DNA from: Anaerolineae bacterium
GTDB taxonomy: Bacteria > Chloroflexota > Anaerolineae > B4-G1 > SLSP01
Length of the DNA: 64,000 nt
Reading direction: 5' to 3'
Assembly: GCA_034435555.1 (NCBI GenBank)
Contig: DAOTXC010000006.1
Coordinates: forward strand, 1,435-65,434
Made by a program: the position numbers and the translations under genes. The stretch's first letter is position 1. Each line of letters opens with the position of its first letter. Positions 23,194-47,751 of this stretch are shown piece by piece. Below the pieces are notes generated by a model. It was not told where the DNA came from and ran no database searches. It saw only the letters and a list, made by a program, of their open reading frames with translations.

Positions 23194-24252
23194 ATGAAAC
23201 CCCGCATCTACATCGCCTACACCGGCGGCACCATCGGGATGCAGAAGACCGCCGACGGCTACGCACCCGCGCCCGGCTATCTCGCCGAGCGCCTCGCCGC
23301 CATGCCGGAGCTCCAATCACCCCACATGCCGGAGTACGTCATCCACGAGTACGACCCGCTGCTCGATTCCTCCGACATGACGCCCGCCGATTGGACGAAG
23401 ATCGCGCAAGACATCGCCACCCACTACAACGCCTACGACGGCTTCGTCGTCCTTCACGGCACCGACACGATGGCCTACACCGCCTCGGCGCTGGCCTTCA
23501 TGTTGCAGGGCCTCGGCAAGCCTGTCATCCTCACCGGCTCGCAGATCCCGCTCTGCGAGGTGCGCAACGACGCCCGCGAGAACCTCATCACTGTGCTGCA
23601 TCTGGCGGCGCACACCCCCATCCCCGAAGTCTGCCTCTACTTTGGCGACAAGCTCCTGCGCGGCTGCCGCGCCACCAAAACCGACGCCGTCGGCTTCGAC
23701 GCCTTCAGCTCGCCGAACTTCCCGCCGCTGGGCGCGGTGGGGATCAACATCCACCTCGCCCACGACCTCTTCCGCCCGCCGCCACCGCCCGACACCGCCC
23801 TGCGGGTCGAACCGCTCCAGCCGGTGCAGGTGACGGCGCTGCGGCTCTTCCCCGGCATCCCGGCGGAAGTCGTCCGCAACATCCTGCGCCCGCCGCTCAA
23901 GGGGCTGGTGCTGGAGACCTACGGCGTGGGCAACGGCCCCACCGGCGACGCGGATTTCATCGCCGCGCTGACCGAGGCGCACGCGCGCGGCGTCATCATC
24001 CTCAACTGCACCCAATGTCTGCGCGGCAGCGTGGACCTGAGCGGGTACGCCACCGGCGCAGCGCTGGCGCGGGCCGGCGTCCTCAGCGGCTACGATATGA
24101 CCCCGGAGGCCGCCCTCACCAAACTCTACTACCTGCTGAGCCAGGGCGGGCCGCTTCCCCAGATCAAACGCCTGCTGCAAACCGACCTCCGGGGCGAGCT
24201 CACCGTGCCCGCCGCACAAGAAGTTAGCGCATTTGCACAACCTGACCCTTAA
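23194..24252 (+). CDS. ansA: L-asparaginase, type I
   Basis: ATG 23194 (MKPRIYIAYTGGTIGM; TGGTI threonine motif). 352 aa. Confidence 0.85.
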   Translation: MKPRIYIAYTGGTIGMQKTADGYAPAPGYLAERLAAMPELQSPHMPEYVIHEYDPLLDSSDMTPADWTKIAQDIATHYNAYDGFVVLHGTDTMAYTASALAFMLQGLGKPVILTGSQIPLCEVRNDARENLITVLHLAAHTPIPEVCLYFGDKLLRGCRATKTDAVGFDAFSSPNFPPLGAVGINIHLAHDLFRPPPPPDTALRVEPLQPVQVTALRLFPGIPAEVVRNILRPPLKGLVLETYGVGNGPTGDADFIAALTEAHARGVIILNCTQCLRGSVDLSGYATGAALARAGVLSGYDMTPEAALTKLYYLLSQGGPLPQIKRLLQTDLRGELTVPAAQEVSAFAQPDP

Positions 24253-24368
24253 AGGTACAATCACGACACGCAGCACAGGTACAATTCCTATGTGACTTTG
24301 GCACACCAACAGTATTGAAACGTCGCTCGGACTGCCAGTCCGCGTTACGACTATTTTGGAGGAAACAA

Positions 24369-27300
24369 ATGTCCCTCGCTGAAACGCTGATCGTGACGCT
24401 TGGCCGTTCAATCGCCAATGCCCTGGTCAAACGCTGGCTGAGTAAGGAGCCGGCTCAGACTCTCACCAGTAATCTTATTGACCTGGCGGCCAAAGAGGGG
24501 CAACGTCGCTTCAAGGGGCATCAGGAACTCCAGCGGGTGGAGCAGCTGGGCGAACACATCGCCGAGCAATTGCGCCCCCTGGTAGAGAACTTCCGCCTGC
24601 TGCCCAACGAACGCGAGGCGCTTATTTTCGAGGTGGCAACCACGCTGAAGGAGGCCGAAATCTCCGCCGAACAACTCCTCGCGCTGCAACTGGATCATAA
24701 AGCGCTGGCGCGTCGCCTGCGCAAGGCCCGCCCGGAAGCGACCCTGACGCTATCTGCCGCACAAACGGAACACTATGAGCAATTGTTAGACCAGGCCGCC
24801 CTCGCCATCCTCAAAATCAGCGCCGAGTTCCCCAGCTATCAACGGCTGCTGGATACCCGCCAACTCCAGGAGCACGCGGCACTGATCGAGGTGGTCAACG
24901 CCATCCTCTATCGCCCCGCCGGGGAGGATGCGCAATTCCGCAACGCCTATCAGCGGCAAATCCAGCGCAAGCTGGAGCGCGCCGAGGAATCGGGCGCACC
25001 ACGCCTGGAAGAACTCAGCAAAGATCAGAGCCTGAGCGTGGCCTATGTGGAGCTCAAAGTTACCTACCCAACCGCTGAGGACAGGGATGCACCCCCGCAA
25101 GCGGCGGACTTTCTGTCGCACGCCGACCGGCGCGAGGGCCACCCCACAGAGCGGACTTGCGCCGCCAGCGAACTGCTTGCCGATACCCGGCGGCTGGTGC
25201 TCCGGGGCGAGGCTGGTTCCGGCAAGACCACTCTGCTGCAATGGCTTGCACTGCGCGCTGCCCACGGTGATTTTCCCAAACAGATGGCGAATTGGAACGA
25301 TCACGTTCCTTTTCTCATCCGCCTGCGGGAATATGTGAATGCCGACTTCCCCACGCCGGAGCAATTTGTCGAGAAACTGACCTCCACCATCGCGGGAACG
25401 ATGCCACACGGCTGGGTCCACCGGCAACTGGAAGCCGGCAAAGCCCTGATTCTAGTGGATGGCGTGGACGAGCTGCCAGAGGCTCAACGGCCCGCCATGT
25501 TGGAACGTTTGCAAGACCTGTTGGAGACCTATCCCCTGGCTCGTTACATCGTGACCTCCCGCCCGCCCGCACTCAAAGCGGAACGCTGGCCCGAATGGAA
25601 CGACTGGATCGCGGGCGCAGGCTTTACCGAGGCGGCGCTCCAACCTATGAGCCAGGCGCAGTACGAGGCTTTTATTGCCCGCTGGTACCAGGCGCTACCC
25701 GAGAATACCGCGCAGCGTGCGGAAGGCGCTGCGCACCTCCAACGCCTCTTACGCCAGCGCCCGTCCCTGCGCCGGCTGGCGACCAACCCGCTCCTCTGCG
25801 CCTTGCTCTGTGCGCTCCACAAAAAGCGTGGCGATAACCTGCCCACGGTGCGGCTGCAGCTCTACCGAGAGAGCGTCGAGATACTGTTGGAAAGTCGAGA
25901 TACCAAACGCGGCGTGCCAGTGAACGCAGATTACCCAAAACTAAGCCTGGATCAACAACTGGCGCTGATGCGGAGCTTTGCGGGCTATCTGCTGCGCAAC
26001 GGGTACACCGACATAGACATAGCGCAGGCGGACCAACATTTTGCCAACCGGCTGGCCTTTATGAGCCTCCCCCCGGAAGTGACCGGCGAGCGCGTGCGTC
26101 GCTTCTTCGTCGAGCGGACCAACCTGCTGCACGAGCCGGTTGTGGGGCGGGTGGATTTCCGCCATCGCACCTTTCTGGAATACCTCGCTGCCGACCAGAT
26201 TGTGGAAGACGACGAATTTGGGCTGTTGAAAACACATACCAACGATGATCAATGGCGCGAAGTGGTGATTTTGGCCGCCGGGCTGGCCCGCCGCAACGAA
26301 AGCGAGGACTTGCTCACATGGTTACTGGAGCAAGGTCCCCTAGGCAGCCTCCTGGCAGTCGCCTGCCTGGAAACTGTGGTGGAGCTCTCCCCCGCCGTGC
26401 GCGAGGCGGTGCTAACCCGCGCGCGAGAACTGCTTCCACCGCAGGATAGTGACCAGGTGACGCTCTATGCCGCCGCCGGGCCGTCACTGGTGCCGCTGCT
26501 CGCGCCAGATCCAGCCCACGATGCCCAAGCGCGCCTCCGCTGCATTGAGGTGCTGGGGCGCATCGGCGGCGAGGCCGCCCGGCAACAATTGGCCCGCTAT
26601 GCCCAGGATTACGCGCAACGGAAAAGCGAAGAACACGATCTGCAAGAAACCCACGCCCTTGCCACGGCCTGGGCCAACTTTGACCCGGAGACCTACGCCC
26701 GCGAGGTCCTCACTTACTTGCCTGAGCTCTGGTGCGAAGGGGTGCCATTCGACAACCTCGGCCCATTCGCCACCCTCACCCAACTGCAAACACTGATTCT
26801 CAAAATTCTCCTGGTCAGCAACCTCAGCCCGCTCGCCAATCTCACCAAACTCCAGCGCCTGGCTCTCATGCACATGCCAGTTGATGATCTCACTCCACTC
26901 CGAACCCTCACTCAATTGCAACGTCTGGATCTGCTACAAACCCCGGTCAGCAATCTACGCCCGCTCTCCCCCCTCACCCAACTGCAAGCCCTAAGTCTCA
27001 TCAGCACCCAGATCAGCGATCTCCATCAGCTTGCCAACCTCACCCAACTGCAAAGCCTGGATCTCAGCGGTAGCCCGGTCAGCGACCTCAGCCCGCTCGC
27101 CAATCTCAGGCAACTGCAAAGCCTAGTTCTCGGCGGTGCCCCAGTCAGCGACCTCAGCCCACTCGCCGCCCTTACTCAACTGCAACGCCTTGATCTTGGC
27201 TACACCCGGGTCAGCGACCTCAGCCCACTTACCGACCTCACGCAACTGCAATGCCTGGATCTTGGCTACACCCGGGTCAGCGACCTCAGCCCACTTACCG

Positions 27301-27737
27301 ACCTCACACAACTGCAACACCTCGATCTCCCCAACACCCCAGTCAGCAACTTACGCCCCCTCGCCGCCCTCACCCAACTGCAACGCCTGGATCTCAAATA
27401 CACCCAGGTAAGTGACCTCAGCCCGCTTGCCGATCTTACGCAACTGCAACGCCTGGATCTCGACCGCACCCAAGTCAGCGACCTCAGCCCACTTACCGAC
27501 CTCACACAACTGCAACGCCTGGATCTCGAAGGCACCCAAGTCAGCGACCTCAGCTCACTCACTGCCCTCACCCAACTGCATAGTCTAGCTCTCCGCCACA
27601 CCCAAGTCAGCAACCTACGCCCGCTGGCAGCGCTGCCGGCCCTGCGCTATGTGCTTGTAGACAAGCACATAGATATCACCCCTCTTCGCCACCGTCACGA
27701 GCTCCAAATTACTTACGAATTGCGTGAGTATAGATGA
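24369..27737 (+). CDS. NACHT-family STAND NTPase with C-terminal leucine-rich repeats (bacterial NLR-like protein)
   Basis: GGAGG RBS 6 nt before ATG 24369. N-terminal helical domain of about 270 aa. NACHT motifs present: Walker A GEAGSGKTTLL, Walker B KALILVDGVDE, YIVTSRP and NPLLCALLCAL. At least 14 tandem 22-aa LRRs (LTQLQRLDLxxTxVSDLSPL). Confidence 0.85.
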   Translation: MSLAETLIVTLGRSIANALVKRWLSKEPAQTLTSNLIDLAAKEGQRRFKGHQELQRVEQLGEHIAEQLRPLVENFRLLPNEREALIFEVATTLKEAEISAEQLLALQLDHKALARRLRKARPEATLTLSAAQTEHYEQLLDQAALAILKISAEFPSYQRLLDTRQLQEHAALIEVVNAILYRPAGEDAQFRNAYQRQIQRKLERAEESGAPRLEELSKDQSLSVAYVELKVTYPTAEDRDAPPQAADFLSHADRREGHPTERTCAASELLADTRRLVLRGEAGSGKTTLLQWLALRAAHGDFPKQMANWNDHVPFLIRLREYVNADFPTPEQFVEKLTSTIAGTMPHGWVHRQLEAGKALILVDGVDELPEAQRPAMLERLQDLLETYPLARYIVTSRPPALKAERWPEWNDWIAGAGFTEAALQPMSQAQYEAFIARWYQALPENTAQRAEGAAHLQRLLRQRPSLRRLATNPLLCALLCALHKKRGDNLPTVRLQLYRESVEILLESRDTKRGVPVNADYPKLSLDQQLALMRSFAGYLLRNGYTDIDIAQADQHFANRLAFMSLPPEVTGERVRRFFVERTNLLHEPVVGRVDFRHRTFLEYLAADQIVEDDEFGLLKTHTNDDQWREVVILAAGLARRNESEDLLTWLLEQGPLGSLLAVACLETVVELSPAVREAVLTRARELLPPQDSDQVTLYAAAGPSLVPLLAPDPAHDAQARLRCIEVLGRIGGEAARQQLARYAQDYAQRKSEEHDLQETHALATAWANFDPETYAREVLTYLPELWCEGVPFDNLGPFATLTQLQTLILKILLVSNLSPLANLTKLQRLALMHMPVDDLTPLRTLTQLQRLDLLQTPVSNLRPLSPLTQLQALSLISTQISDLHQLANLTQLQSLDLSGSPVSDLSPLANLRQLQSLVLGGAPVSDLSPLAALTQLQRLDLGYTRVSDLSPLTDLTQLQCLDLGYTRVSDLSPLTDLTQLQHLDLPNTPVSNLRPLAALTQLQRLDLKYTQVSDLSPLADLTQLQRLDLDRTQVSDLSPLTDLTQLQRLDLEGTQVSDLSSLTALTQLHSLALRHTQVSNLRPLAALPALRYVLVDKHIDITPLRHRHELQITYELREYR
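26775..27650 (+). repeat. 66-bp tandem DNA repeats encoding the LRR array
   Basis: Near-identical 66-nt units (...cagcgacctcagcccacttaccgacctcac(a/g)caactgcaacgcctggatct...) are visible directly in the sequence. Confidence 0.8.
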
Positions 27738-27744
27738 AAATGTA

Positions 27745-27786
27745 GGACGGGCCGCTGGCCCGTCCCGACAGGCGAGCCGCCTGTTC
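27745..27786 (+). terminator. tandem GC hairpins after the NLR gene (putative terminator, poor U-tract)
   Basis: ggacgggcc-gct-ggcccgtcc followed by acaggcg-agcc-gcctgt. Confidence 0.4.
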
Positions 27787-31251: not shown

Positions 31252-34200
31252 ATGCGTAAAGGTATGCTCTTTGTAGGAACGCTAATATTGGCCGCGCTCT
31301 TGCTCGTCGCCCTGTTGGCCGGACTTGAGCGAGCCGAGGCCGCCCCCACCCTGCCCACGCCGACGGGCTGCGTCGTCGTGTCGGCCAACATCATCACCGA
31401 TACGATTTGGGACGGTGATTGTTATCTCGTGACCACCGACACGGTCGCCATCATGCCCGACGTCAGCCTTACCATCACACCCCCGCTCAGTGGAACTCTG
31501 GTGCGTTTCCAGCCCGGCGCGCAGTTGCAGGTCTTGGGCACGTTGCAAGCCCTGGGGACGGAGACCCGTCCCATCACCTTCACCTCGGCAGCCGCCACGC
31601 CCGTACCCGGCGATTGGATCGGCATCATCCTGGAAGATGACGCACAGAACGACCGGGACATCATCCGGTACGCTGTCATCGAGTACGCCCGCACGGGGGT
31701 CAAAGTCAACGACGAGGACTTCGTGGAACTCACGCACAACCGCTTCCGCTACAACGGCGGGCCAGGCCCCCGCGATGGCGCGATCAGTGGGGACGCCGAC
31801 AACGCCACCATCACGCACAACGTCATCCACGACTGCCGCAACGGGCTGTCACTCAACGAATCCTTCAACAACGTGATCAGTCACAACAGGCTCTATAACA
31901 TCGAGGCGTATGGCATCCGCCTCTTCGCCGCCACGACCTCCGGCGGCTCGTCCAACCAGATCACCCACAACGAGATTCACGATTGCCAGCTGGCGGCGCT
32001 GCGCCTGGAGATCGGTTCGCAGAACGTGGTGCTGAGCAACACGCTCTATCTCAACGCTGGCAGCGCGGCCATCTTCGTGGATCAGGCGCTCAGCCGCTTC
32101 GAGGGAAATCTGGTCATCGCCAACGGCGCGCCCGGTTACGGCGGCGCGGTCGTGGTGACGGACACCTCCACGCTCTCGGCGATCAGCCGCAACATCATCC
32201 ACGACCCGCACGGCGACGCGCTCGCCTACGATGCCAGCGCGCCATCGCCGGTTCTCGCCACGGCGGGGAACGCCCTCTGCGCGCCGGCGGGCTACGCCTT
32301 GAACAACGGAGCAGGCAACGTGAGCGCGCCCACGAACTGGTGGGGCGCGAACGATCCGGCGGCGGCCATCTTCGGCCCGGTGGACGCCAGCAATCCCATC
32401 ACGCTGGCGCTCGCGGCGGAGGCGATCACGCTCCCCGCCGACGGCCACGCGACGGCGCTGCTCACCGTGACCTTCCGCGCCCCGGATGGGACGATTGTCC
32501 CTGCGCTGCCGCCCGGCGCGCCGGGCTTCGCCCCCGACCCGCGCGAGATCGCGCTGACGACGAGCCTGGGGACGCTCAGCGCGCCCGCTGTCGCCATTGA
32601 TGCGCAGGGCGAGGCCCTCTTCGCACTGACCGCGCCCACCACAGCGGGCACGGCGGTCGTCACTGCGACGGGCTTCTGCGGCTACCCGGTCACGGCAACC
32701 GTGACCTTCGCCGCGACCGACATCGCCATCACCAAGACCACCGCCATCACCGAAGCGGCGCTAGGGGAACCGATCACCTACACGCTGCACTACGCCAACC
32801 TGAGCGGCAGTCTCGCCAGCCATGTCCTCCTCACCGACACGCTGCCCACCGGCACGCACTACATCGCCGATAGCAGCGGGCTTTCGGTCACGTTGCTGCC
32901 GAGCGAGGTGGTCTGGGCGCTGCCCGATCTCGCGCCCTCGGCGACGCACACCTTCACGCTGGTGCTCGGCATCGAGGAAGCGCCCGAACTCTGCGACGCC
33001 ACGCTGGTCAACACGGCGACGCTCACCACCGCCACGGAGGACACCGATCCAAGCAACAACCTCGCCGTCGCACCGCCTGTCGCCATCACTTGCCCCGGCT
33101 ACGTGGACCTGGTCGTGGTGAAGGATGACAATGTCGGCCCGCTGACCGCCTATCACGCGACGGACACGCCACTAGGACAATGGCTCCACAGCGTGCGGCC
33201 CGTCACGGCCCACCGCGAGTTCGTCTACGAGGGCGATTTCGTCACCTATACGATTGCGCTCTTCAACGATGGGCCGGAGACCGCCACCGGGATCATCCTC
33301 ACCGAGACGCTGCCGCTCCACACGACCTACGTGGAGCGGGGCTTCGGCTGGATCGCCGTGGATACGCGCACCTACACCCTCGCCGCGCCCCCGCTCGCGC
33401 CCGGCGAGGGATTCCTCACCTACATGGTCGTGCAGGTGGGCGAAACCCTGCCCGAAGGCGTAAACAACCTGGTCAACCTGGTCTGCGCCTTCGCCGCCGA
33501 GCCGGAGCTCGACCCGAACGATAATTGCAACTACGAGGATACGCCCGTCGTGCGGCGCGCGCTGCGGGTCTCCAAATCGGCCCCGATGTGCATCTCGCCG
33601 GGGCAGGCCTTCTACTACACGCCGCGCTACACGAACACCAACAGCCTCACCGGCTACACCAACGTCCCCCTCACCGACACGCTGCCGGCCTACGTGAGCT
33701 ACGCGGGATCGCCTGTGGGGAATTGGAGCTGCGCCGGCGGCGTCTGCACCGCCACCCTCCCGGAGATCCCCGCCAACACGAGCGCCCGTGGGCCGGTGCT
33801 GCCCGTCCAGCTCAGCGCCGCCTATCCCCTCACCGGCACAGGGCTGATTACCAACACCATCGAGATCAGCGGCGGGTTCCGCTTCGTGCTGGTCTCCACC
33901 GTGGATCTCGGCCCCGATCTGGTTGTGGTGAAGAACGACAACGTCGGGCCGACGCCGCGCGCGACGGCCTTCCTCCAGCAGCAGATCGAGCGGCAGCTCT
34001 ACGGCGCGCCGCGCGCGACCAGCGCCGCAGTGCGGGAGTACGTCCGTCCCGGCGAGATCATCAGCTACACGATCCTCTACGTCAACAGCGGCGTGCTGAC
34101 GGCGACCGAGGTGGTGCTCACCGAGCATCTGCCCCAGTACACGCGCTACCTGGGCGGCGGCTGGGACGATGCGGGCGGCGGGCGTTACACGCTCGCTGTG

Positions 34201-35403
34201 GGCGATCTGGCCCCTGGTCAGGGCGGCGAGGCAGTCTTTATGGTCGAGGTGATTGACCCCTTCCCGCTCGGCGTGGATCGGGTGCTCAACCGCGTGAACA
34301 TCGCCGGCGCGGAGGTGGAATGTGATACCACGAACAACACCTCCTACGACGATACGCCGGTGCAGACCGCGACGCGGCTCTACGTCGCCGCGCGCGACTC
34401 GGAAACGATTGAGGTCTTTGCTGGGACCAATTTCGCCTCGCTGGGTGCATTCGACGCCGGCCCCATCCCCTTCGGCATGGCGGCCTGGGATGGGCAGCTC
34501 TACGTCGCCAACTTCGAGGATGCCACCTTCACCAGCACCGTCTCCAGCTTCGATCTGACCACCCACGCGCCCATCCACACCGTGGATGTGGGACGGCATC
34601 CCACCTACCTGGCGGCGCTGAACGGGCGCATCTACGTCACCAACCACAGCGGCGGCGAGGGCATCACCGTTATTGATGCAGCAACCGGCGCGGTCATCGC
34701 GCGGCTCAGCCCGAACCAGCCGGGCGTCTACGACTTCGGCTTCTTCGGCATCACCGCCGACACAGCTCGGAATCGCATCTACACCACCAAGCGCTACATG
34801 GGCGGCATGGGGCTGTGGGTCATCACGCCCACAGCCAGCGGCTACACCTTCGAGCAAGCCATCGCCACGGACGCCACGCCGTACGCTGTGGCCTATAATC
34901 CCAACAACGATCGCATCTACATCACCTTCGCCCAGCTGAACGAGCTGCGCGTCTACGACGCCGAGACGCTGACCCAGGTCGCCGCCTACGCGACCGGCGT
35001 GCAAGACCCCAACGATCCCGGCTATGGCGGGCAAGGGTTGGCGGTGATGGGCGAGTGCGCCTACGTCAGCAACTACGCGGCAGGCTCAATCACCGTGGTG
35101 GCCGAAGGGCCATGCTGGGAAGGAGAACGGCCCGAGGCAGGACCAGCGCCCGGCGTCCCCCTCAGCGGCGATCACCGCCTTTACCTGCCGCTGGTGCTGC
35201 GCGGGATGCAAACGTATCCCAACATCCGCACCGTGCCGGTGGAAGGCCGCCCGAAGGGGCTGGCTGCGCAGGATGGGCTGATCCTCGTCACCTTGCCGGA
35301 GGAAAATCGCGTCGTGGTGCTTGATGCGCAATTGCTCCAGATCGTCCGGGAGATTCTCGTGGCAGGAGAACATCCCCACACACTCTTGTTGACCGAGCCG
35401 TAA
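31252..35403 (+). CDS. large secreted surface protein: right-handed beta-helix (PbH1) + DUF11 repeats + YVTN-type beta-propeller
   Basis: Signal peptide MRKGMLFVGTLILAALLLVALLAGLERAEA. Repeated (I/V)THNxIHDC beta-helix turns. DLVVVK(D/N)DNVGP DUF11 starts. C-terminal LYVANF…IYVTNHSGG YVTN repeats. 1383 aa. Confidence 0.65.
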   Translation: MRKGMLFVGTLILAALLLVALLAGLERAEAAPTLPTPTGCVVVSANIITDTIWDGDCYLVTTDTVAIMPDVSLTITPPLSGTLVRFQPGAQLQVLGTLQALGTETRPITFTSAAATPVPGDWIGIILEDDAQNDRDIIRYAVIEYARTGVKVNDEDFVELTHNRFRYNGGPGPRDGAISGDADNATITHNVIHDCRNGLSLNESFNNVISHNRLYNIEAYGIRLFAATTSGGSSNQITHNEIHDCQLAALRLEIGSQNVVLSNTLYLNAGSAAIFVDQALSRFEGNLVIANGAPGYGGAVVVTDTSTLSAISRNIIHDPHGDALAYDASAPSPVLATAGNALCAPAGYALNNGAGNVSAPTNWWGANDPAAAIFGPVDASNPITLALAAEAITLPADGHATALLTVTFRAPDGTIVPALPPGAPGFAPDPREIALTTSLGTLSAPAVAIDAQGEALFALTAPTTAGTAVVTATGFCGYPVTATVTFAATDIAITKTTAITEAALGEPITYTLHYANLSGSLASHVLLTDTLPTGTHYIADSSGLSVTLLPSEVVWALPDLAPSATHTFTLVLGIEEAPELCDATLVNTATLTTATEDTDPSNNLAVAPPVAITCPGYVDLVVVKDDNVGPLTAYHATDTPLGQWLHSVRPVTAHREFVYEGDFVTYTIALFNDGPETATGIILTETLPLHTTYVERGFGWIAVDTRTYTLAAPPLAPGEGFLTYMVVQVGETLPEGVNNLVNLVCAFAAEPELDPNDNCNYEDTPVVRRALRVSKSAPMCISPGQAFYYTPRYTNTNSLTGYTNVPLTDTLPAYVSYAGSPVGNWSCAGGVCTATLPEIPANTSARGPVLPVQLSAAYPLTGTGLITNTIEISGGFRFVLVSTVDLGPDLVVVKNDNVGPTPRATAFLQQQIERQLYGAPRATSAAVREYVRPGEIISYTILYVNSGVLTATEVVLTEHLPQYTRYLGGGWDDAGGGRYTLAVGDLAPGQGGEAVFMVEVIDPFPLGVDRVLNRVNIAGAEVECDTTNNTSYDDTPVQTATRLYVAARDSETIEVFAGTNFASLGAFDAGPIPFGMAAWDGQLYVANFEDATFTSTVSSFDLTTHAPIHTVDVGRHPTYLAALNGRIYVTNHSGGEGITVIDAATGAVIARLSPNQPGVYDFGFFGITADTARNRIYTTKRYMGGMGLWVITPTASGYTFEQAIATDATPYAVAYNPNNDRIYITFAQLNELRVYDAETLTQVAAYATGVQDPNDPGYGGQGLAVMGECAYVSNYAAGSITVVAEGPCWEGERPEAGPAPGVPLSGDHRLYLPLVLRGMQTYPNIRTVPVEGRPKGLAAQDGLILVTLPEENRVVVLDAQLLQIVREILVAGEHPHTLLLTEP

Positions 35404-43932: not shown

Positions 43933-46900
43933 TTAACGGCTTCCCAGGACGTTGTGCAATGCTTCACACGCCGGGCAGCCCCCGCCGGGTCGGATAATCG
44001 CGTAGCCGTCCTGCGGGTCGTACTCATAGCGCACGAAGTCAATGTTCCACACGATGATGCACCGCACCATGCCGGTGTTCGCCCCCAGGCTTGCAGCCTC
44101 GGCCAGCCAGGCCGCCTGCTGCGCGTTGTTGATACCCCGCGCCCAGGCGAAAGCATCGGAGAAGGTCGGGACGCCCTCCTGGGAGGCATAGCCCATCTCG
44201 GTATAGAAGACCTGCCGCTGCCCACGGAAGATGTTGTAGTAGAGCTCCGTCTGCGGCAGGAAGTACCAGGAGTGGTGCGTGCTGCCGGTTGGGTGGCCGC
44301 TGCGCGCCGAAGGCGCGGTCGCGCCCGCGTTATGGTGCGCGCCGATGTAGTCCATACAGTTGGCCGCGCCCGCGTTGTACAGGCCCTCCATCCACGGCTG
44401 ATCGTCACACCCGTTGGGGCCACAGCCGCCGAAGTAACCGGTCGGCGCCGGGGCCGCGCTGATGACCGCGCTACCCGGGTTCGCCGCCTTGATAGCTCGA
44501 TAGGAAGCGCACAGGAGATTGGTGTAGGCTTGCGGGCTGATGTGCCCGATTTGCCACTCGCGATCAATGTTCGGCTCGTTCCATACCTCGATGGCGTCAG
44601 CGCCGGCGGCGGCCAAGCTCGCCACCCAGTTAGCATAATCCTGCTCGAAGCCGGGCTGCGTCACCATACCGGGGCCACCGATAGCGCTCACCTGAATCTT
44701 GAAGCCGCGCGCGTGCGCCGCGTTGATGAGCCAGGAGGGATCGTCACCGTAGTGGACCTGCACTTTGGCCCAGTTCATCCCAGAGTAGTGCATCAGCTCG
44801 GCGTAGGGGAAGGCGTAATCGCGGATGTGGCCGCCCAGCTCGAAGCTGCCGCCAGCGACCGGTGTGACCGGCCCCGGGGCGGGCGCAGGCGCAGCCTGCT
44901 CCTCGCCTGCAGCGATGACTACCGTGACGCCGCCGCCGCTGATTTGCGTATTCCCCACCGCCAAGGCCCAGACACCTGTGAAGTTACCGTCCCTGTCGGG
45001 CGCGGTCATCTCCACGCTGATGTCCACCTCAGCGCCGACCGCCACAGACCCCACCTCGACCGAATTCGCCGAGGTCATCTGCTCACCGCGCACGTAGACC
45101 AAAACGGTATTCTCCGGCCAATCCTCCGAACCGGAGTTGCGCAAGCGCCAGGTCTTGGTGAAGGATTCCCCCTTCTCGAAGCGCGTGTTGTCGGGGACGG
45201 TCACATCGGTCACGAAGGCCGCCGCCAACCCCGCCGTCGTCGCGGGCGTGTCGTCCTCAGGCTCCTCAGGTTCATCGTCCTCAAGCTCAGTTTCGCCCGT
45301 TGCCACCGCCTGCGAATCGGCCACGATCAAGGAGACATCACCGCGCTCCTGACCATCCACACTCACCGCGATGCGGTAGGTGCCGGTGATCTCCGGCGCG
45401 GTCCAGGTGAAGCTGGGCTGATCGAAGGTCGCCGTTGTCCGTATCTGCTGTCCGGCCGGGTCGGAGACCTGCCAAACGATTTCGGGCAGCGTGTAAGTCG
45501 TGGTGGGCGCTTGCGCCTGATACACATCCAGCACCTCCAGAATCCCCGGCACGTTGCCCGCATCCAGGATGTCATTGACGACCACTGCGCCCAGGTGATA
45601 GCGCGCCGCGAGATCGAGGCGGGTGCGCAAGAACTGCGGCGTCCCCAGCCAGATCTGCCGACCCACCGCCAACACCTTGGCCGCGCCGGTGGTCGCATCC
45701 ACCTCGGTGGAGACCACCGGGGAGAGCTGGAAGTTCAATGCCGTGCCAGGCTCCACCGACTCGCCATTCAATTGCGGGGCCTGCAAATCGCCGATGGGCA
45801 GCGCCTCGGTCATCGGCAGCGTGGTCTCCCCATCCGTGCTCAGGGTCGTGTAGACAGGGGCCAGGGAATAGCGGCTGACCTGCGTGGTTCCCCAGGCCAA
45901 GAGCTGCTCGGCCTCGCCGCCGGGCGTGTAAGCCTCCGGCGAGAGGGGCATCAGCACCCGCACCTGATCGGCAGCGACGCCCAACCCGCGCCAGGCATAG
46001 CCGCCCGTGTCCCAGGAGCCATCAGCGTTGCGCACCGGCGTCTCGACGGTTACAGCCAGCCAGACCCCATACTCGTGCAGGGAGTCGGCCAGCGCCCCAA
46101 CGAGCGCCAGATAGGTCTCGCGCTCCGTGCGCTCCAGCCCCCGGTAGTCGAGCACGACGCCAGCATAGCCACCATTGCGCACCAGCGCCGTCACATTCTC
46201 GACGTGCGCCACGCGGTCCGCCTCGATGTTGAGCATATCGCGCACCAGGCCCACATTGGCAGCGTGCCCAGGAACCCAGTTACGCACGACCACGGCCAGC
46301 GGCGCGCCGCCCGCCCCCCCATTGGGGAGCGCCGTTGGATCGCCCACCAGCGATCCCAACGTGCCCAACATCATCCCGGTGATATTGAACTCGGTCAGCG
46401 CCCCGGTCGGCCCGGTGGGCAACCGTTCCGCCACATTGGTCGCCAACGCCTGCACAACCGGCTGGGTTTGCACCACCATCACGGCGCTCGGCAAGCGCGT
46501 CGTCTCAGCAACCAGGACTTCTGGCTCATTCGCGCGGTCAATGCGCGCGGGCATCCAGTACCAGGCGGCCCCATCCCAACCGTAGAGATCCAACGTCTCC
46601 CACGGCTCTGCCTCGTTGGGGACAATCACCTCAAGAACGATGGGGCTATCGCCCTCACCGCGCCATTCGAGGGTGTAGTAGGGGCTTTTGGGGACAAGCG
46701 AGCTGGGCAGCGATTCACGCGCCGCCGCTACCGCTTCATTCTGGGTATTGAGAAAGTCGGCGCGCGGCACCGATCCCAACCGCAACCGCACATCGCTGGC
46801 TGCTTCGAGATTGACGGCAACGCCATTTTGACGCAGCGTGTTCGCTACCTCCTCCGACATCATCTTCACGGTCAAGCCGTCGGGATGGGTGAGCGAGGGA

Positions 46901-47283
46901 TTGCGAGCGTTGAGCGTCTCATAACCGCTGCCATCGGCGATGTGCGCCCAAAGGGAAATCGGGGGAATGGAGATGAAGAGCAGGAAGATCAACACCAGGC
47001 CAACCACGACCAACCAGCCGCGCCCTTGTAGCGCGTTGCGCAACTGCGTGACGCTGCCGCCAAGACGCGCCAACGGCGTCGGCTTGGAAGACTCCATCGC
47101 TTCCAGGCTGACCAAAGCGGGGCCACCCGCACTTGAAGCAGGCTCCGCCACACTCTCAGCAGCCGATGCGGACTCCGTTGGGAGAGCTGCTGCTACTACC
47201 GGGGCCTCTGTCGCCGTCGCTTCGCTCGCGCCAGCGCCCACATCCGTTTCAACGATCTCATTTGGCTGAATATTTTCAGTCAT
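43933..47283 (-). CDS. membrane-anchored multidomain glycoside hydrolase (GH18-like + NBR1-like Ig domain + clan GH-A/GH5-like C-terminal domain)
   Basis: GGAGG RBS before ATG 47283. Single N-terminal TM. NBR1/FW-like segment (FEKGESFTKTWRLRNSGSEDWPENTVL). C-terminal AIEVWNEPN catalytic-acid motif of clan GH-A. Confidence 0.55.
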   Translation of the reverse strand: MTENIQPNEIVETDVGAGASEATATEAPVVAAALPTESASAAESVAEPASSAGGPALVSLEAMESSKPTPLARLGGSVTQLRNALQGRGWLVVVGLVLIFLLFISIPPISLWAHIADGSGYETLNARNPSLTHPDGLTVKMMSEEVANTLRQNGVAVNLEAASDVRLRLGSVPRADFLNTQNEAVAAARESLPSSLVPKSPYYTLEWRGEGDSPIVLEVIVPNEAEPWETLDLYGWDGAAWYWMPARIDRANEPEVLVAETTRLPSAVMVVQTQPVVQALATNVAERLPTGPTGALTEFNITGMMLGTLGSLVGDPTALPNGGAGGAPLAVVVRNWVPGHAANVGLVRDMLNIEADRVAHVENVTALVRNGGYAGVVLDYRGLERTERETYLALVGALADSLHEYGVWLAVTVETPVRNADGSWDTGGYAWRGLGVAADQVRVLMPLSPEAYTPGGEAEQLLAWGTTQVSRYSLAPVYTTLSTDGETTLPMTEALPIGDLQAPQLNGESVEPGTALNFQLSPVVSTEVDATTGAAKVLAVGRQIWLGTPQFLRTRLDLAARYHLGAVVVNDILDAGNVPGILEVLDVYQAQAPTTTYTLPEIVWQVSDPAGQQIRTTATFDQPSFTWTAPEITGTYRIAVSVDGQERGDVSLIVADSQAVATGETELEDDEPEEPEDDTPATTAGLAAAFVTDVTVPDNTRFEKGESFTKTWRLRNSGSEDWPENTVLVYVRGEQMTSANSVEVGSVAVGAEVDISVEMTAPDRDGNFTGVWALAVGNTQISGGGVTVVIAAGEEQAAPAPAPGPVTPVAGGSFELGGHIRDYAFPYAELMHYSGMNWAKVQVHYGDDPSWLINAAHARGFKIQVSAIGGPGMVTQPGFEQDYANWVASLAAAGADAIEVWNEPNIDREWQIGHISPQAYTNLLCASYRAIKAANPGSAVISAAPAPTGYFGGCGPNGCDDQPWMEGLYNAGAANCMDYIGAHHNAGATAPSARSGHPTGSTHHSWYFLPQTELYYNIFRGQRQVFYTEMGYASQEGVPTFSDAFAWARGINNAQQAAWLAEAASLGANTGMVRCIIVWNIDFVRYEYDPQDGYAIIRPGGGCPACEALHNVLGSR

Positions 47284-47751
47284 GTACTTATCCTCCATAA
47301 CCTTAACTTAGCCTATGCTAAGAAAAACCGCCGACATTGTATCACATGGCCCCAGAATGGCAAGGGTAAATCCAAATTTCAAAAAATAGTATTTAAAGAT
47401 ATAAAACATGCGAACGCGAGAAGCGGGGGATGAACGGGGGCGGAAAAAGAGGGGGGATACGTAACGGGTGATGAGGCGATTTATTAACGCCACCCATTTT
47501 CCCATCACCCTTTACCCTCTCCCAGAAAAGCCCATCGCCCCCGGCACGCAAGCTAGAATATGCTATAATAGAAGGTGGTTTCTTTGCTACACGAGGAAAT
47601 TCATCTCCCTTATCGAAGTGGGCCAACCGCACTTCCCAAGTGATCGCCCGACGCGCCCCTAGGGGCTTGATGTATTTCCCCGTTGGAACGACCGCCTGAG
47701 GGCATCAAACAGGCGCATCTCATCACGCCAAGAGCGAAAGGAGTAAGAAAA

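Follow-up and report, generated by a model that had tools for sequence, protein, structure and literature searches.

What does the N-terminal domain of a bacterial NLR-like protein do if it is not an enzyme? The question is raised by a gene in the 64,000-nucleotide stretch of DNA analysed here (the window), from an uncultured member of the Anaerolineae (Chloroflexota), in which positions 24369-25180 translate to MSLAETLIVTLGRSIANALVKRWL..., coordinates and peptide both being exact. The assignment to this group was inferred from HtpG, which is 75% identical to that of an Anaerolineales MAG. We find that the positions given almost certainly encode two parts of a monocistronic bacterial NLR (NNH1-NACHT-LRR), namely its NNH1 domain (PF22733) and its pre-NACHT segment, and that this NLR is a homolog of bNACHT16, a clade 4 protein of Kibby et al. 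Because its architecture of NNH1, NACHT and ~12 LRRs matches that of bNACHT16, the window protein can be regarded as an addition to a known family that has no assigned function, and it is in itself an ordinary member of a family that is already catalogued. Our literature search found no paper giving NNH1 a function, and the family carries no functional annotation in the sources examined.

Gene and domain layout

The features of the gene are collected in Table 1. We take the ATG at 24369 as the correct start, not the upstream TTG at 24315, because of the GGAGG shortly before it and because homologs align from their own Met1. The scan placed the T-tail version of the hairpin that follows the stop codon on the minus strand; its stem is palindromic.

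Pfam assigns residues 9-180 to NNH1 (E = 7.5e-29, profile positions 2-176 of 177), with a score of 101.5 bits for the fragment of residues 1-270 and 98.4 bits for the whole protein against a gathering cutoff of 27. The Pfam model begins at about residue 8, so that the first half-turns of helix 1 are left out. AlphaFold2 (AF2) predicts nine helices for residues 1-186 (pLDDT 86.5, pTM 0.78), and residues 26-50 have both the lowest confidence and the lowest conservation within the domain. NNH1 lies directly N-terminal to the NACHT NTPase, which is the effector position in bacterial NACHT proteins according to Kibby et al. The preliminary description of this DNA had recognised the N-terminal domain of an NLR-like protein, and the NNH1, NACHT and LRR assignments bear this out; the name that the domain already has in Pfam was absent from it. 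The same description took about 250 residues to be all-helical, which holds for the bundle of residues 1-186 but not for residues 187-270, where one more helix is accompanied by two short strands (230-234 and 261-265) and a variable loop of low confidence (pLDDT < 50 at residues 219-227 and 244-255). This segment also carries the most conserved motif of the family, the invariant columns F190, Y194, L202, G209, L222, A225 and Y226 of the homolog alignment, and we read it as a pre-NACHT segment because the motif directly precedes the Walker A at 280. Walker B (LILVDGVDE) has its first residue at 360. The sensor consists of ~12 units of 22 aa, visible in the DNA as 66-nt repeats of 73-75% identity (Tandem Repeats Finder).

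Table 1. The NLR gene, its flanking signals and the parts of its protein (window positions)
Feature	Position	Strand	Basis
Promoter-like site TTTGCA-18-TACAAT, 5' of the NLR gene, overlapping the end of the asparaginase gene	24232..24261	+	Consensus scan, pattern match only
Shine-Dalgarno GGAGG, ATG 6 nt downstream	24358..24362	+	Sequence read
Whole gene: single-gene bacterial NLR, 1122 aa, NNH1-NACHT-helical/WHD-LRR	24369..27737	+	ORF, translation, Pfam domains
NNH1 domain proper, residues 1-186, nine-helix bundle	24369..24926	+	Pfam PF22733, AF2
Helix 1, residues 3-25	24375..24443	+	AF2 secondary structure, family conservation, hydrophobicity
Pre-NACHT segment, residues 187-270: helix and strand motif, variable loop, strand into P-loop	24927..25180	+	Alignment, conservation, AF2
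NACHT NTPase core, residues 274-441	25188..25691	+	Pfam NACHT, E = 3.5e-21
Walker A GEAGSGKT, residues 280-287	25206-25229	+	Motif position
C-terminal LRR sensor, residues ~796-1100	26754..27668	+	Pfam LRR_4, E = 1.5e-39; NCBIfam internalin-like match
GC-rich hairpin directly 3' of the stop codon, possible terminator	27744..27766	.	Scan

A widespread family and its relation to bNACHT16

The NNH1 profile retrieved 1911 cluster representatives at E ≤ 1e-3 (~1,900 clusters at 50% identity), in records that carry labels such as Chloroflexota, Cyanobacteria, Actinobacteria, Planctomycetota and Proteobacteria. Each of the 40 aligned homologs matches Pfam NNH1, and the domain starts at or before protein residue 5 in 212 of 236 homologs (90%). 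A word-indexed homolog search returned nothing for the 270-aa fragment alone and returned homologs for residues 1-700. Public collections contain a protein identical to that of the window (P0001), and a search of the GTDB representative genomes with the NLR protein found no relative. In two further proteins, P0037 and P0039, an unrelated N-terminal domain precedes a NACHT-LRR chassis that is 44% identical to the query. We also looked for stand-alone NNH1 proteins, as known for Bell, and the short matches were gene fragments, either continuing into NACHT or broken off within the domain. The window holds no second NNH1 copy. PADLOC did not match the NLR protein to known defence systems, giving only P-loop-level matches at E ≥ 8e-4. 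With respect to gene neighbourhood, no neighbouring gene is common to four homolog loci and the window, although three of those homolog loci have an alpha/beta-hydrolase gene nearby.

The most informative homolog is bNACHT16, which Kibby et al. singled out as the bacterial protein most like human NLRs and which scores 108.5 bits with the NNH1 profile. The two proteins are 29% identical over 388 aa spanning NNH1 and NACHT (BLASTP, E = 2e-45). Kibby et al. reported that H-to-L/P and T584P alleles of bNACHT16 inhibit the growth of E. coli. The WHD motif FxHxT, which was mutated to hyperactivate that protein, occurs in the query as FRH599RT601F, so that H599L and T601P are likely the equivalents of the hyperactivating alleles, judging from the shared motif. 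H599 and T601 probably correspond to H443 and S445 of NLRC4 and to T584 of bNACHT16. In Table S2 of the same study, the 'Phage Defense' column for bNACHT16 names no phage, and one gene is given for its operon. Table S1 lists, in the same clade, proteins with PNP_UDP or calcineurin-like enzymes in place of the N-terminal part of NNH1.

A conserved hydrophobic helix at the extreme N-terminus

AF2 places helix 1 at residues 3-25 or 3-24 with a pLDDT of ~80. The helix had been described as hydrophobic, basic and amphipathic. It is hydrophobic and has a net charge of +2, but its amphipathicity finds no statistical support: 41% of shuffles reach its Eisenberg moment of 0.226, calculated over 24 residues. 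It is in its conservation across the family that the helix exceeds chance. In 214 of 236 homologs (91%) no other 19-mer of the domain is as hydrophobic as helix 1, and the median Kyte-Doolittle value of the helix across homologs, 1.44, equals or exceeds those of the ZAR1 and HET-S helices. Equal hydrophobicity would be expected of a core helix buried in any globular helical domain. The best 19-mer of the query itself reaches 1.22, below the transmembrane threshold of 1.6. We considered helix 1 as a signal peptide or classical transmembrane segment and rejected this on the basis of that value, of E5 and of the lack of an N-terminal basic n-region.

Across the family the helix bears a signature of E5 (84% acidic), G12 (87-88%), K17 (95% basic), K21 (89% basic) and W23 (95%), with G12 sitting mid-helix. 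The query differs from the family at N17, K26, E203 and S208, and helix 1 of bNACHT16 (MPIFEGFLALSSVLCKTGFQIIAG) is without G12 and W23. Coevolving pairs connect helix 1 to H2 (17-38, 20-36, 20-40), H3 (23-57), H7 (14-135, 15-143) and H8 (22-165) at low power (Neff 214), a pattern that is consistent with a helix sheathed by the rest of the bundle. Among these pairs, the coevolution of K17 with D38 points to a salt bridge within the domain rather than to contact with lipid.

Searches for HeLo, MLKL, CC-NLR and Bell relatives

The N-terminal domain had been likened to the MADA-type N-termini of plant CC-NLRs and to HeLo and MLKL bundles, with AlphaFold and Foldseek named as the check. That check gave no match in the PDB at E ≤ 0.001, the best values being 0.46 and 1.2 with a TM-score ≤ 0.44; MLKL, HeLo and CC/ZAR1 were absent from the top 50 and Bab was also unmatched. 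The NNH1 profile found zero matches among PDB sequences. At the level of Pfam profiles, the HeLo (PF14479), Hell, Helo_like_N (PF17111), Rx_N (PF18052) and RPW8 (PF05659) families were without a match among the best 25 of 37 families for the 40 members. The MADA consensus (MADAxVSFxVxKLxxLLxxEx) is matched by the query at 2 of 13 defined positions (M1 and A4), with a family median of 1 and a maximum of 3. The proposed likeness found no direct backing in structure, profile or motif searches. SesA (PF17107) was matched by one of the 40 members (E = 0.006, 17.2 bits, below the cutoff of 26.3), with residues 167-211 aligned to profile positions 56-101. We rejected this match as evidence for a HeLo-like N-terminal helix, as these residues adjoin NACHT and lie away from helix 1.

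Two further comparisons were made with the N-termini of other bacterial NLRs. Aligned by hhalign to clade-14 bNACHT N-termini, NNH1 gave weak matches of 1-2% probability, with P 0.022 and probability 2.2% for residues 1-52 (reversed control P 0.33). A helix-1 HMM was run against bNACHT01/02/04/11/12/22, bNACHT16, P0037 and the N-termini of HET-S, MLKL and ZAR1. It did not single out the clade-14 N-termini; empirical p values ranged from 0.015 (bNACHT02) to 0.56, the others were not significant, bNACHT22 was not scored and nothing survives correction for 11 tests. This HMM test is without power, because it barely recognised a true member, bNACHT16 (1.8 bits, p 0.043).

NNH1 as a possible output module

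Several lines of evidence point to NNH1 as the output module of the protein, namely its N-terminal start, the hydrophobic helix 1 with its signature, the single-gene loci and the toxicity of hyperactive bNACHT16. By analogy with that toxicity, and from the position of the domain, we infer that NNH1 may serve as the effector; a membrane-attacking role is plausible, and the choice of the membrane as target is speculative. We hypothesize, with some hesitation, that NNH1 may be a built-in, non-enzymatic death or growth-arrest module whose clustered helices would perturb the membrane. In the resting state, helix 1 would lie against the bundle's other helices. Binding of a trigger by the LRRs would lead the NACHT module to oligomerise, many NNH1 copies would become clustered, and helix 1 would be freed on a flexible tether formed by residues 26-50. 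The clustered N-terminal helices could then enter and perturb the cytoplasmic membrane, resulting in cell death or arrest.

It would seem unlikely, but deserves most weight among the alternatives, that NNH1 is an adaptor or scaffold, in which bundles clustered by NACHT recruit, activate or sequester a conserved cellular protein in a death-fold or CARD-like manner and make no contact with the membrane. Kibby et al. recognise, in bacterial NACHT proteins, a class of N-terminal 'adaptor' domains that are not catalytic, and their Table S1 has one NNH1+NACHT+EACC1 protein, where EACC1 stands for 'effector-associated constant component'. NNH1 is itself all-helical and has neither catalytic residues nor a structural relative, and its conserved surface-type residues D38, D109, S129 and E142 could form an interface. 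However, no conserved partner gene was found at the five loci (four homolog loci and the window). Since bNACHT16 from Vibrio needs no co-expressed partner to be toxic in E. coli, any partner would have to be broadly conserved. An adaptor also leaves unexplained why the domain starts at residue 1-5 and why, in ~90% of members, hydrophobicity peaks in the first helix, features that belong to the case for a membrane-directed output module.

The swapping of N-terminal domains bears on a further alternative, by which NNH1 would be mainly a regulatory cap or neck that auto-inhibits NACHT and shapes the oligomer, with the harm coming from elsewhere, for instance from runaway NTP hydrolysis or aggregation of the NLR. 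We consider this distinctly improbable. The proteins of Table S1 that have an enzyme at the N-terminus keep an NNH1 stretch of 43 to 105 aa (Calcineurin-conf+NNH1+NACHT+LRR and PNP_UDP+NNH1+NACHT+Imm-LRR), which we read as a NACHT-proximal linker; the most conserved motif (residues 190-229) adjoins NACHT, and the weak SesA match falls within the NACHT-adjacent segment as well. These arguments apply only to the C-terminal part, whereas it is the N-terminal 100-140 residues, with helix 1 among them, that enzymatic effectors replace, as expected for an interchangeable output domain, and the signature of helix 1 is strongly conserved.

Even if helix 1 meets the membrane, it could do so as a constitutive peripheral anchor that docks the sensor to the inner membrane, perhaps in readiness for incoming phage components, and not as a killing device. 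The basic residues K17, K21 and K25 and the aromatic W23 that flank the hydrophobic helix are typical of interfacial helices, and its N-terminal position is strictly kept. Yet the coevolution that ties helix 1 to four other helices of the bundle suggests burial at rest, K17 is paired with D38, the hydrophobic moment is not elevated and the toxicity of hyperactive bNACHT16 would go unexplained, which together leave the anchor a very small likelihood. Least credible of all is that the sequence and Foldseek searches missed an all-alpha enzyme, for instance a HEPN-like one or some other helical hydrolase: the family has no conserved Arg/His/Asp/Glu constellation, its 30 best-conserved positions being mainly hydrophobic with the addition of D38, D109, S129, E142 and D203, and neither the PDB nor BFVD gave any match at E < 0.3. 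No enzymatic or DNA-binding fold was found, either of which would have refuted the reading in the preliminary description. The preliminary description, which had seen no enzymatic motif, is upheld here, as apart from NNH1 the fragment has no above-threshold match in Pfam, NCBIfam or PADLOC.

If NNH1 is indeed a membrane attacker released by oligomerisation, the plant resistosome design of helical executioner, STAND NTPase and LRR would be fully formed in bacteria, and the Bell/HeLo/MLKL/CC story would extend to LRR-bearing bacterial NLRs. If it is an adaptor instead, it would define a new signalling fold. The family signature of E5, G12, K17, K21 and W23, together with H599 and T601, offers precise mutation targets.

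Comparison with known systems

The query and bNACHT16 have in common the NNH1+NACHT+LRR architecture (NNH1+NACHT+Imm-LRR in bNACHT16) and the single-gene operon; they differ in host and length, bNACHT16 being a Vibrio protein of 950 aa and the query an Anaerolineae protein of 1122 aa.

Among membrane-targeting modules, NNH1 can be compared with Bell and Babybell (Bab). Like NNH1, they form part of bacterial NLR-type NTPases or act alongside them, and they have a hydrophobic helix at the extreme N-terminus with a central conserved glycine, G11 in Bab and G12 in NNH1, and G11 of Bab helix 1 was found to be essential by Ibarlosa et al. (bioRxiv 10.1101/2024.11.07.622273). In that work it is proposed that the helical N-termini of antiphage NLRs (Avast2, bNACHT02/11/23) have a membrane-targeting helix in common with the Bell and Hell domains. 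The 'MEPIS' motif of ~15 aa occurs in Bab, Hell, Avast2 and bNACHT02/11/23. Between 'MEPIS' N-termini and NNH1 there is a weak, collinear and not significant alignment (M..E..l.lG..aK.ilK.WL.d for NNH1, Mdpi..el...gi..a.k.l..kils..W for the other); the list of MEPIS-bearing proteins of Ibarlosa et al. does not include NNH1 or bNACHT16. In Bell and Babybell, which are ~80-100 aa long, about four other helices cup helix 1, whereas NNH1 has ~186 aa in nine helices, and helix 1 of NNH1 is probably sheathed by others. Members of the HeLo/Bell/MLKL/CC group typically have an acidic residue at position 2-3 (Dyrka et al., bioRxiv 10.1101/2020.01.06.895854); in contrast, position 2 or 3 is acidic in only 3% of 188 NNH1 members and position 5 in 84%, and NNH1 is without an amyloid motif.

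The action that we propose would make NNH1 a functional analogue of the Bell/Babybell, HeLo, MLKL and CC-resistosome modules, and its likeness to CC-NLR, HeLo and MLKL proteins is a resemblance of design rather than proven homology. One could go further and regard NNH1 as a so far unrecognised offshoot, strongly diverged, of the HeLo/Bell/CC modules that target membranes, which would make NNH1-NACHT-LRR proteins true bacterial resistosomes, LRR-triggered oligomers with an N-terminal helix pore or channel, and the closest prokaryotic counterpart of plant CC-NLRs; this is conceivable, if rather unlikely. NNH1 does possess the hydrophobic helix at the extreme N-terminus that is a trait of the HeLo/Hell/SesA/MLKL superfamily. 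Plant CC-NLRs use NB-ARC as their NTPase where the query uses NACHT, and the logic common to the query, the plant CC-NLR resistosomes (ZAR1/NRC4, MADA; Adachi et al. 2019, PMC6944444) and the HeLo/Hell/SesA and MLKL proteins is that a single polypeptide joins a helical domain at its N-terminus to a STAND NTPase and an LRR sensor, the functional helix coming first in the chain.

Identity of the NLR and its family

We regard the identity of the window protein as settled: it adds a member to the NNH1-NACHT-LRR (bNACHT16-like) family. The N-terminal peptide quoted in the preliminary description was exact, with translation giving a protein that starts MSLAETLIVTLGRSIANALVKRWL. Because the ATG at 24369 coincides with Met1 in essentially all aligned homologs and is preceded by GGAGG, we assign the protein a length of 1122 aa. 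Pfam recognised three modules in it, while the NCBIfam matches were limited to internalin-like LRRs and distant models of antiphage NACHT proteins, and a PADLOC scan returned matches at the P-loop level only. The NNH1 domain itself is not new: Kibby et al. (bioRxiv 10.1101/2022.07.19.500537) gave it its name.

By sequence, the protein is a direct homolog of bNACHT16: the two are 29% identical across 388 aa (E 2e-45), and the NNH1 profile matches bNACHT16 at 108.5 bits. bNACHT16 from Vibrio campbellii is an NNH1+NACHT+Imm-LRR protein of clade 4 (Kibby Table S1, bioRxiv 10.1101/2022.07.19.500537) that inhibits growth in E. coli when it carries NLRC4-type hyperactivating substitutions (H to L/P; T584P); it is listed with no phage under "Phage Defense" and with an operon of one gene (Kibby et al.). 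No paper found in our literature search gives a function for NNH1.

A search with residues 1-700 found 677 relatives; among the 120 listed, nearly all have NNH1+NACHT and most have LRRs too, and source names include KSB1, Chloroflexota, Nostoc, Amycolatopsis, Planctomycetota and Burkholderiales. The profile of residues 1-186, searched against 1.84 billion cluster representatives, matched 1911 proteins at E <= 1e-3, of which 581 reach E <= 1e-30; the short matches are fragments, so no stand-alone NNH1 was seen.

Features of the NLR gene and its product
Feature	Position	Strand	Basis or state
ORF	24315 (TTG) to stop 27737	+	sequence read
Shine-Dalgarno GGAGG	24358-24362	+	precedes ATG 24369
Promoter-like site	24232-24261		pattern scan
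GC hairpin 3' of stop	27744-27766		scan
NACHT	residues 274-441		Pfam
Walker A GEAGSGKT	residues 280-287		intact
Walker B LILVDGVDE	from residue 360		intact
WHD motif FRH599RT601F	residues 599 (H) and 601 (T)		intact
LRR_4, multiple units	C-terminal 300 residues		Pfam

The LRR-coding array (window 26755-27625) has ~12 tandem units, each 66 nt (22 aa) long and 73-75% identical in DNA to the others. It resembles the repeats of 'high internal conservation' that have been discussed in fungal and bacterial NLRs and that may diversify through unequal recombination.

Genomic neighbourhood

The window is chromosomal. Asparaginase and S10 peptidase genes lie upstream of the NLR gene, and downstream come a molybdenum hydroxylase gene and one for a surface protein with DUF11/beta-helix domains; more distant genes encode HtpG, MgsA, Mfd and oligopeptidase F. 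HtpG shares 75% identity with its counterpart in an uncultured Anaerolineales MAG, its remaining matches being Anaerolineae or Chloroflexota. The gene following the NLR has its own strong promoter-like site, and the window holds a single NNH1. Two large ORFs nearby encode probable surface proteins unrelated to the NLR: one of 1383 aa (31252-35403, +) with beta-helix/NosD, four DUF11 repeats and Ig-like domains, and one of 1121 aa (43933-47298, -) whose sole Pfam match is the Ig-like domain N_BRCA1_IG.

The NLR gene likewise stands alone amid unrelated housekeeping genes in the four loci of homologs compared, from Nostoc, Amycolatopsis and two metagenomic contigs, with no partner gene common to all. 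An alpha/beta-hydrolase gene occurs near it in three of them (L014:10733-11935, L017:9980-10813, L016:13817-14557), directly downstream in Nostoc and Amycolatopsis and three genes off in the third; none adjoins the window gene, and the proximity could be chance.

An identical NLR gene was found on three short contigs (3.8-4.0 kb) from other metagenomes, all beginning inside window 24075-24139. Two of them, L001 (3836-3974) and L003 (3772-3814), break abruptly from the window directly after 27909 (27909/27910) into AT-rich sequence (GCTTACTATCATAAAG...), where the window continues with the RBS and the beginning of the Mo-hydroxylase gene. This pattern suggests a structural polymorphism at strain level flanking the NLR gene.

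[quoted passage not shown]

The region had been described as an amphipathic N-terminal helix followed by ~250 all-helical residues. AlphaFold2 predicted the helix (residues 3-25, helix 1) in both models, and in the 270-residue model (pLDDT 77) the region is helical to about residue 219; beyond this come a variable loop of low confidence and strands at 230-234 and 261-265. The most conserved motif (F190, Y194, L202, G209, L222, A225, Y226) lies in this tail, leading into the P-loop, and we read the tail as a pre-NACHT segment outside the helical effector.

The amphipathic character found no statistical support. Helix 1 is hydrophobic with a few basic residues; its hydrophobic moment over 24 residues (0.226) is equalled by 41% of shuffles and its best Kyte-Doolittle 19-mer scores 1.22, so it is not demonstrably amphipathic, nor is it a classical transmembrane segment. 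The robust observation is its evolutionary conservation. NNH1 starts at residue <=5 in 212 of 236 homologs and the N-terminal helix is the domain's most hydrophobic 19-mer in 214 of them (median score 1.44; >=1.6 in 27%). The family signature is M-[PAS]-[LI]-Φ-E5-T-L-x-L-x-L-G12-x-A-[IV]-A-K17-x-Φ-Φ-K21-Φ-W23-L-x-D26, with position 5 acidic in 84%, G12 in 87%, position 17 basic in 95%, position 21 basic in 89%, W23 in 95% and position 26 acidic in 86%. Helix 1 belongs to the better-conserved helices (2.21 bits; domain mean 1.91), though it is not alone in this.

The query is atypical for its family at several of the best-conserved positions, namely N17 (window 24417-24419; K/R in 95%), K26 (24444-24446; D/E in 86%), E203 (24975-24977; D in 89%) and S208 (24990-24992; F in 86%), and it also has H135, Q142, F154 and Y157. 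These departures may reflect altered regulation or mild decay. The query keeps D38, the coevolution partner of K17; in the family, this pair resembles an internal salt bridge.

NNH1 as the likeliest output module

Calcineurin-conf+NNH1(43 aa)+NACHT+LRR and PNP_UDP+NNH1(105 aa)+NACHT+Imm-LRR proteins exist (Kibby Table S1, bioRxiv 10.1101/2022.07.19.500537). Since these short NNH1 spans are annotated just before NACHT, we infer that the enzymes take the place of the N-terminal part of NNH1 and that the NACHT-proximal part stays. Two NACHT-LRR homologs (P0037 and P0039) are 44% identical to the query over NACHT-LRR and 42-44% identical across 76% of query residues 1-700, and have an unrelated N-terminal region of ~290 aa without a Pfam match, a case of an N-terminal domain swap on one chassis. 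That region also starts with a hydrophobic, glycine-rich segment (MSEQTMERIVDTVLGMISLAGGGTFVKL).

Taken with the solitary setting of the gene and with the toxicity that hyperactive bNACHT16 shows without a partner, such swaps make NNH1 the likeliest output module of the NLR. The membrane-active role first proposed for it is a reasonable hypothesis that matches recent thinking on bacterial NLR N-termini; the "amphipathic" argument for it is weak, and none of the homology or fold tests run was positive. We tentatively favour a membrane-directed killing module, at somewhat below even chances. It is unlikely that NNH1 serves as an adaptor or scaffold, and a mainly regulatory role is more doubtful still; other readings share the remainder.

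Comparison with known N-terminal modules

The proposed likeness to HeLo, MLKL and MADA-type CC domains was not borne out in sequence tests. A lenient Pfam scan of 40 family members found NNH1 in all 40, and HeLo, Helo_like_N, Rx_N and RPW8 were absent from the 25 families listed of 37. One member had a sub-threshold SesA match (E 0.006), in which homolog residues 167-211 align to SesA profile positions 56-101 of 122. Because this match lies on the helix adjoining NACHT and not on helix 1, we rejected it as evidence for a HeLo-like head; it may be chance, or the NACHT-proximal linker, rather than the effector head, may be the part common to bacterial and fungal NACHT proteins. The query agrees with the MADA consensus, MADAxVSFxVxKLxxLLxxEx (PMC6944444), at 2 of 13 positions (NNH1 family median 1). 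Bell, HeLo, Hell, MLKL, RPW8 and Rx_N have an acidic residue at position 2-3 (Dyrka et al., bioRxiv 10.1101/2020.01.06.895854), a trait of 3% of NNH1 members.

The most relevant precedent is the E. coli abortive-infection protein Bab, whose solved Babybell domain has a hydrophobic N-terminal helix cupped by four helices and an essential central G11; its "MEPIS" N-terminal region is common to Bab, Hell, Bell and the antiphage NLRs Avast2 and bNACHT02/11/23, in subfamilies that outside helix 1 have diverged "nearly beyond recognition" (Ibarlosa et al., bioRxiv 10.1101/2024.11.07.622273). bNACHT02/11/23 belong to clade 14 (NACHT+SNaCT), outside the NNH1 group. NNH1 resembles the MEPIS group in its central Gly, K-x3-K and W-L-K-D/E. 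With the bNACHT02/11/23 N-termini (Kibby Table S2) and 113 relatives, hhalign aligned the NNH1 N-terminus collinearly but weakly (P 0.022, probability 2%; reversed control P 0.33), and a helix-1 HMM had no discriminating power, bNACHT16 itself reaching only 1.8 bits; the link is thus suggestive but unproven.

Mean-field DCA, of low power at 243 sequences (Neff 214), gave sensible helix-helix registers, such as H4-H7 at 81-132, 86-139, 89-140, 90-143 and 93-147. It paired helix 1 with H2 (17-38, 20-36, 20-40, 26-39), H3 (23-57), H7 (14-135, 15-143) and H8 (22-165). These contacts would fit an ordinary buried core helix equally well; they suggest that helix 1 is enclosed by other helices at rest, an arrangement that would parallel Bab, HET-S and inactive ZAR1.
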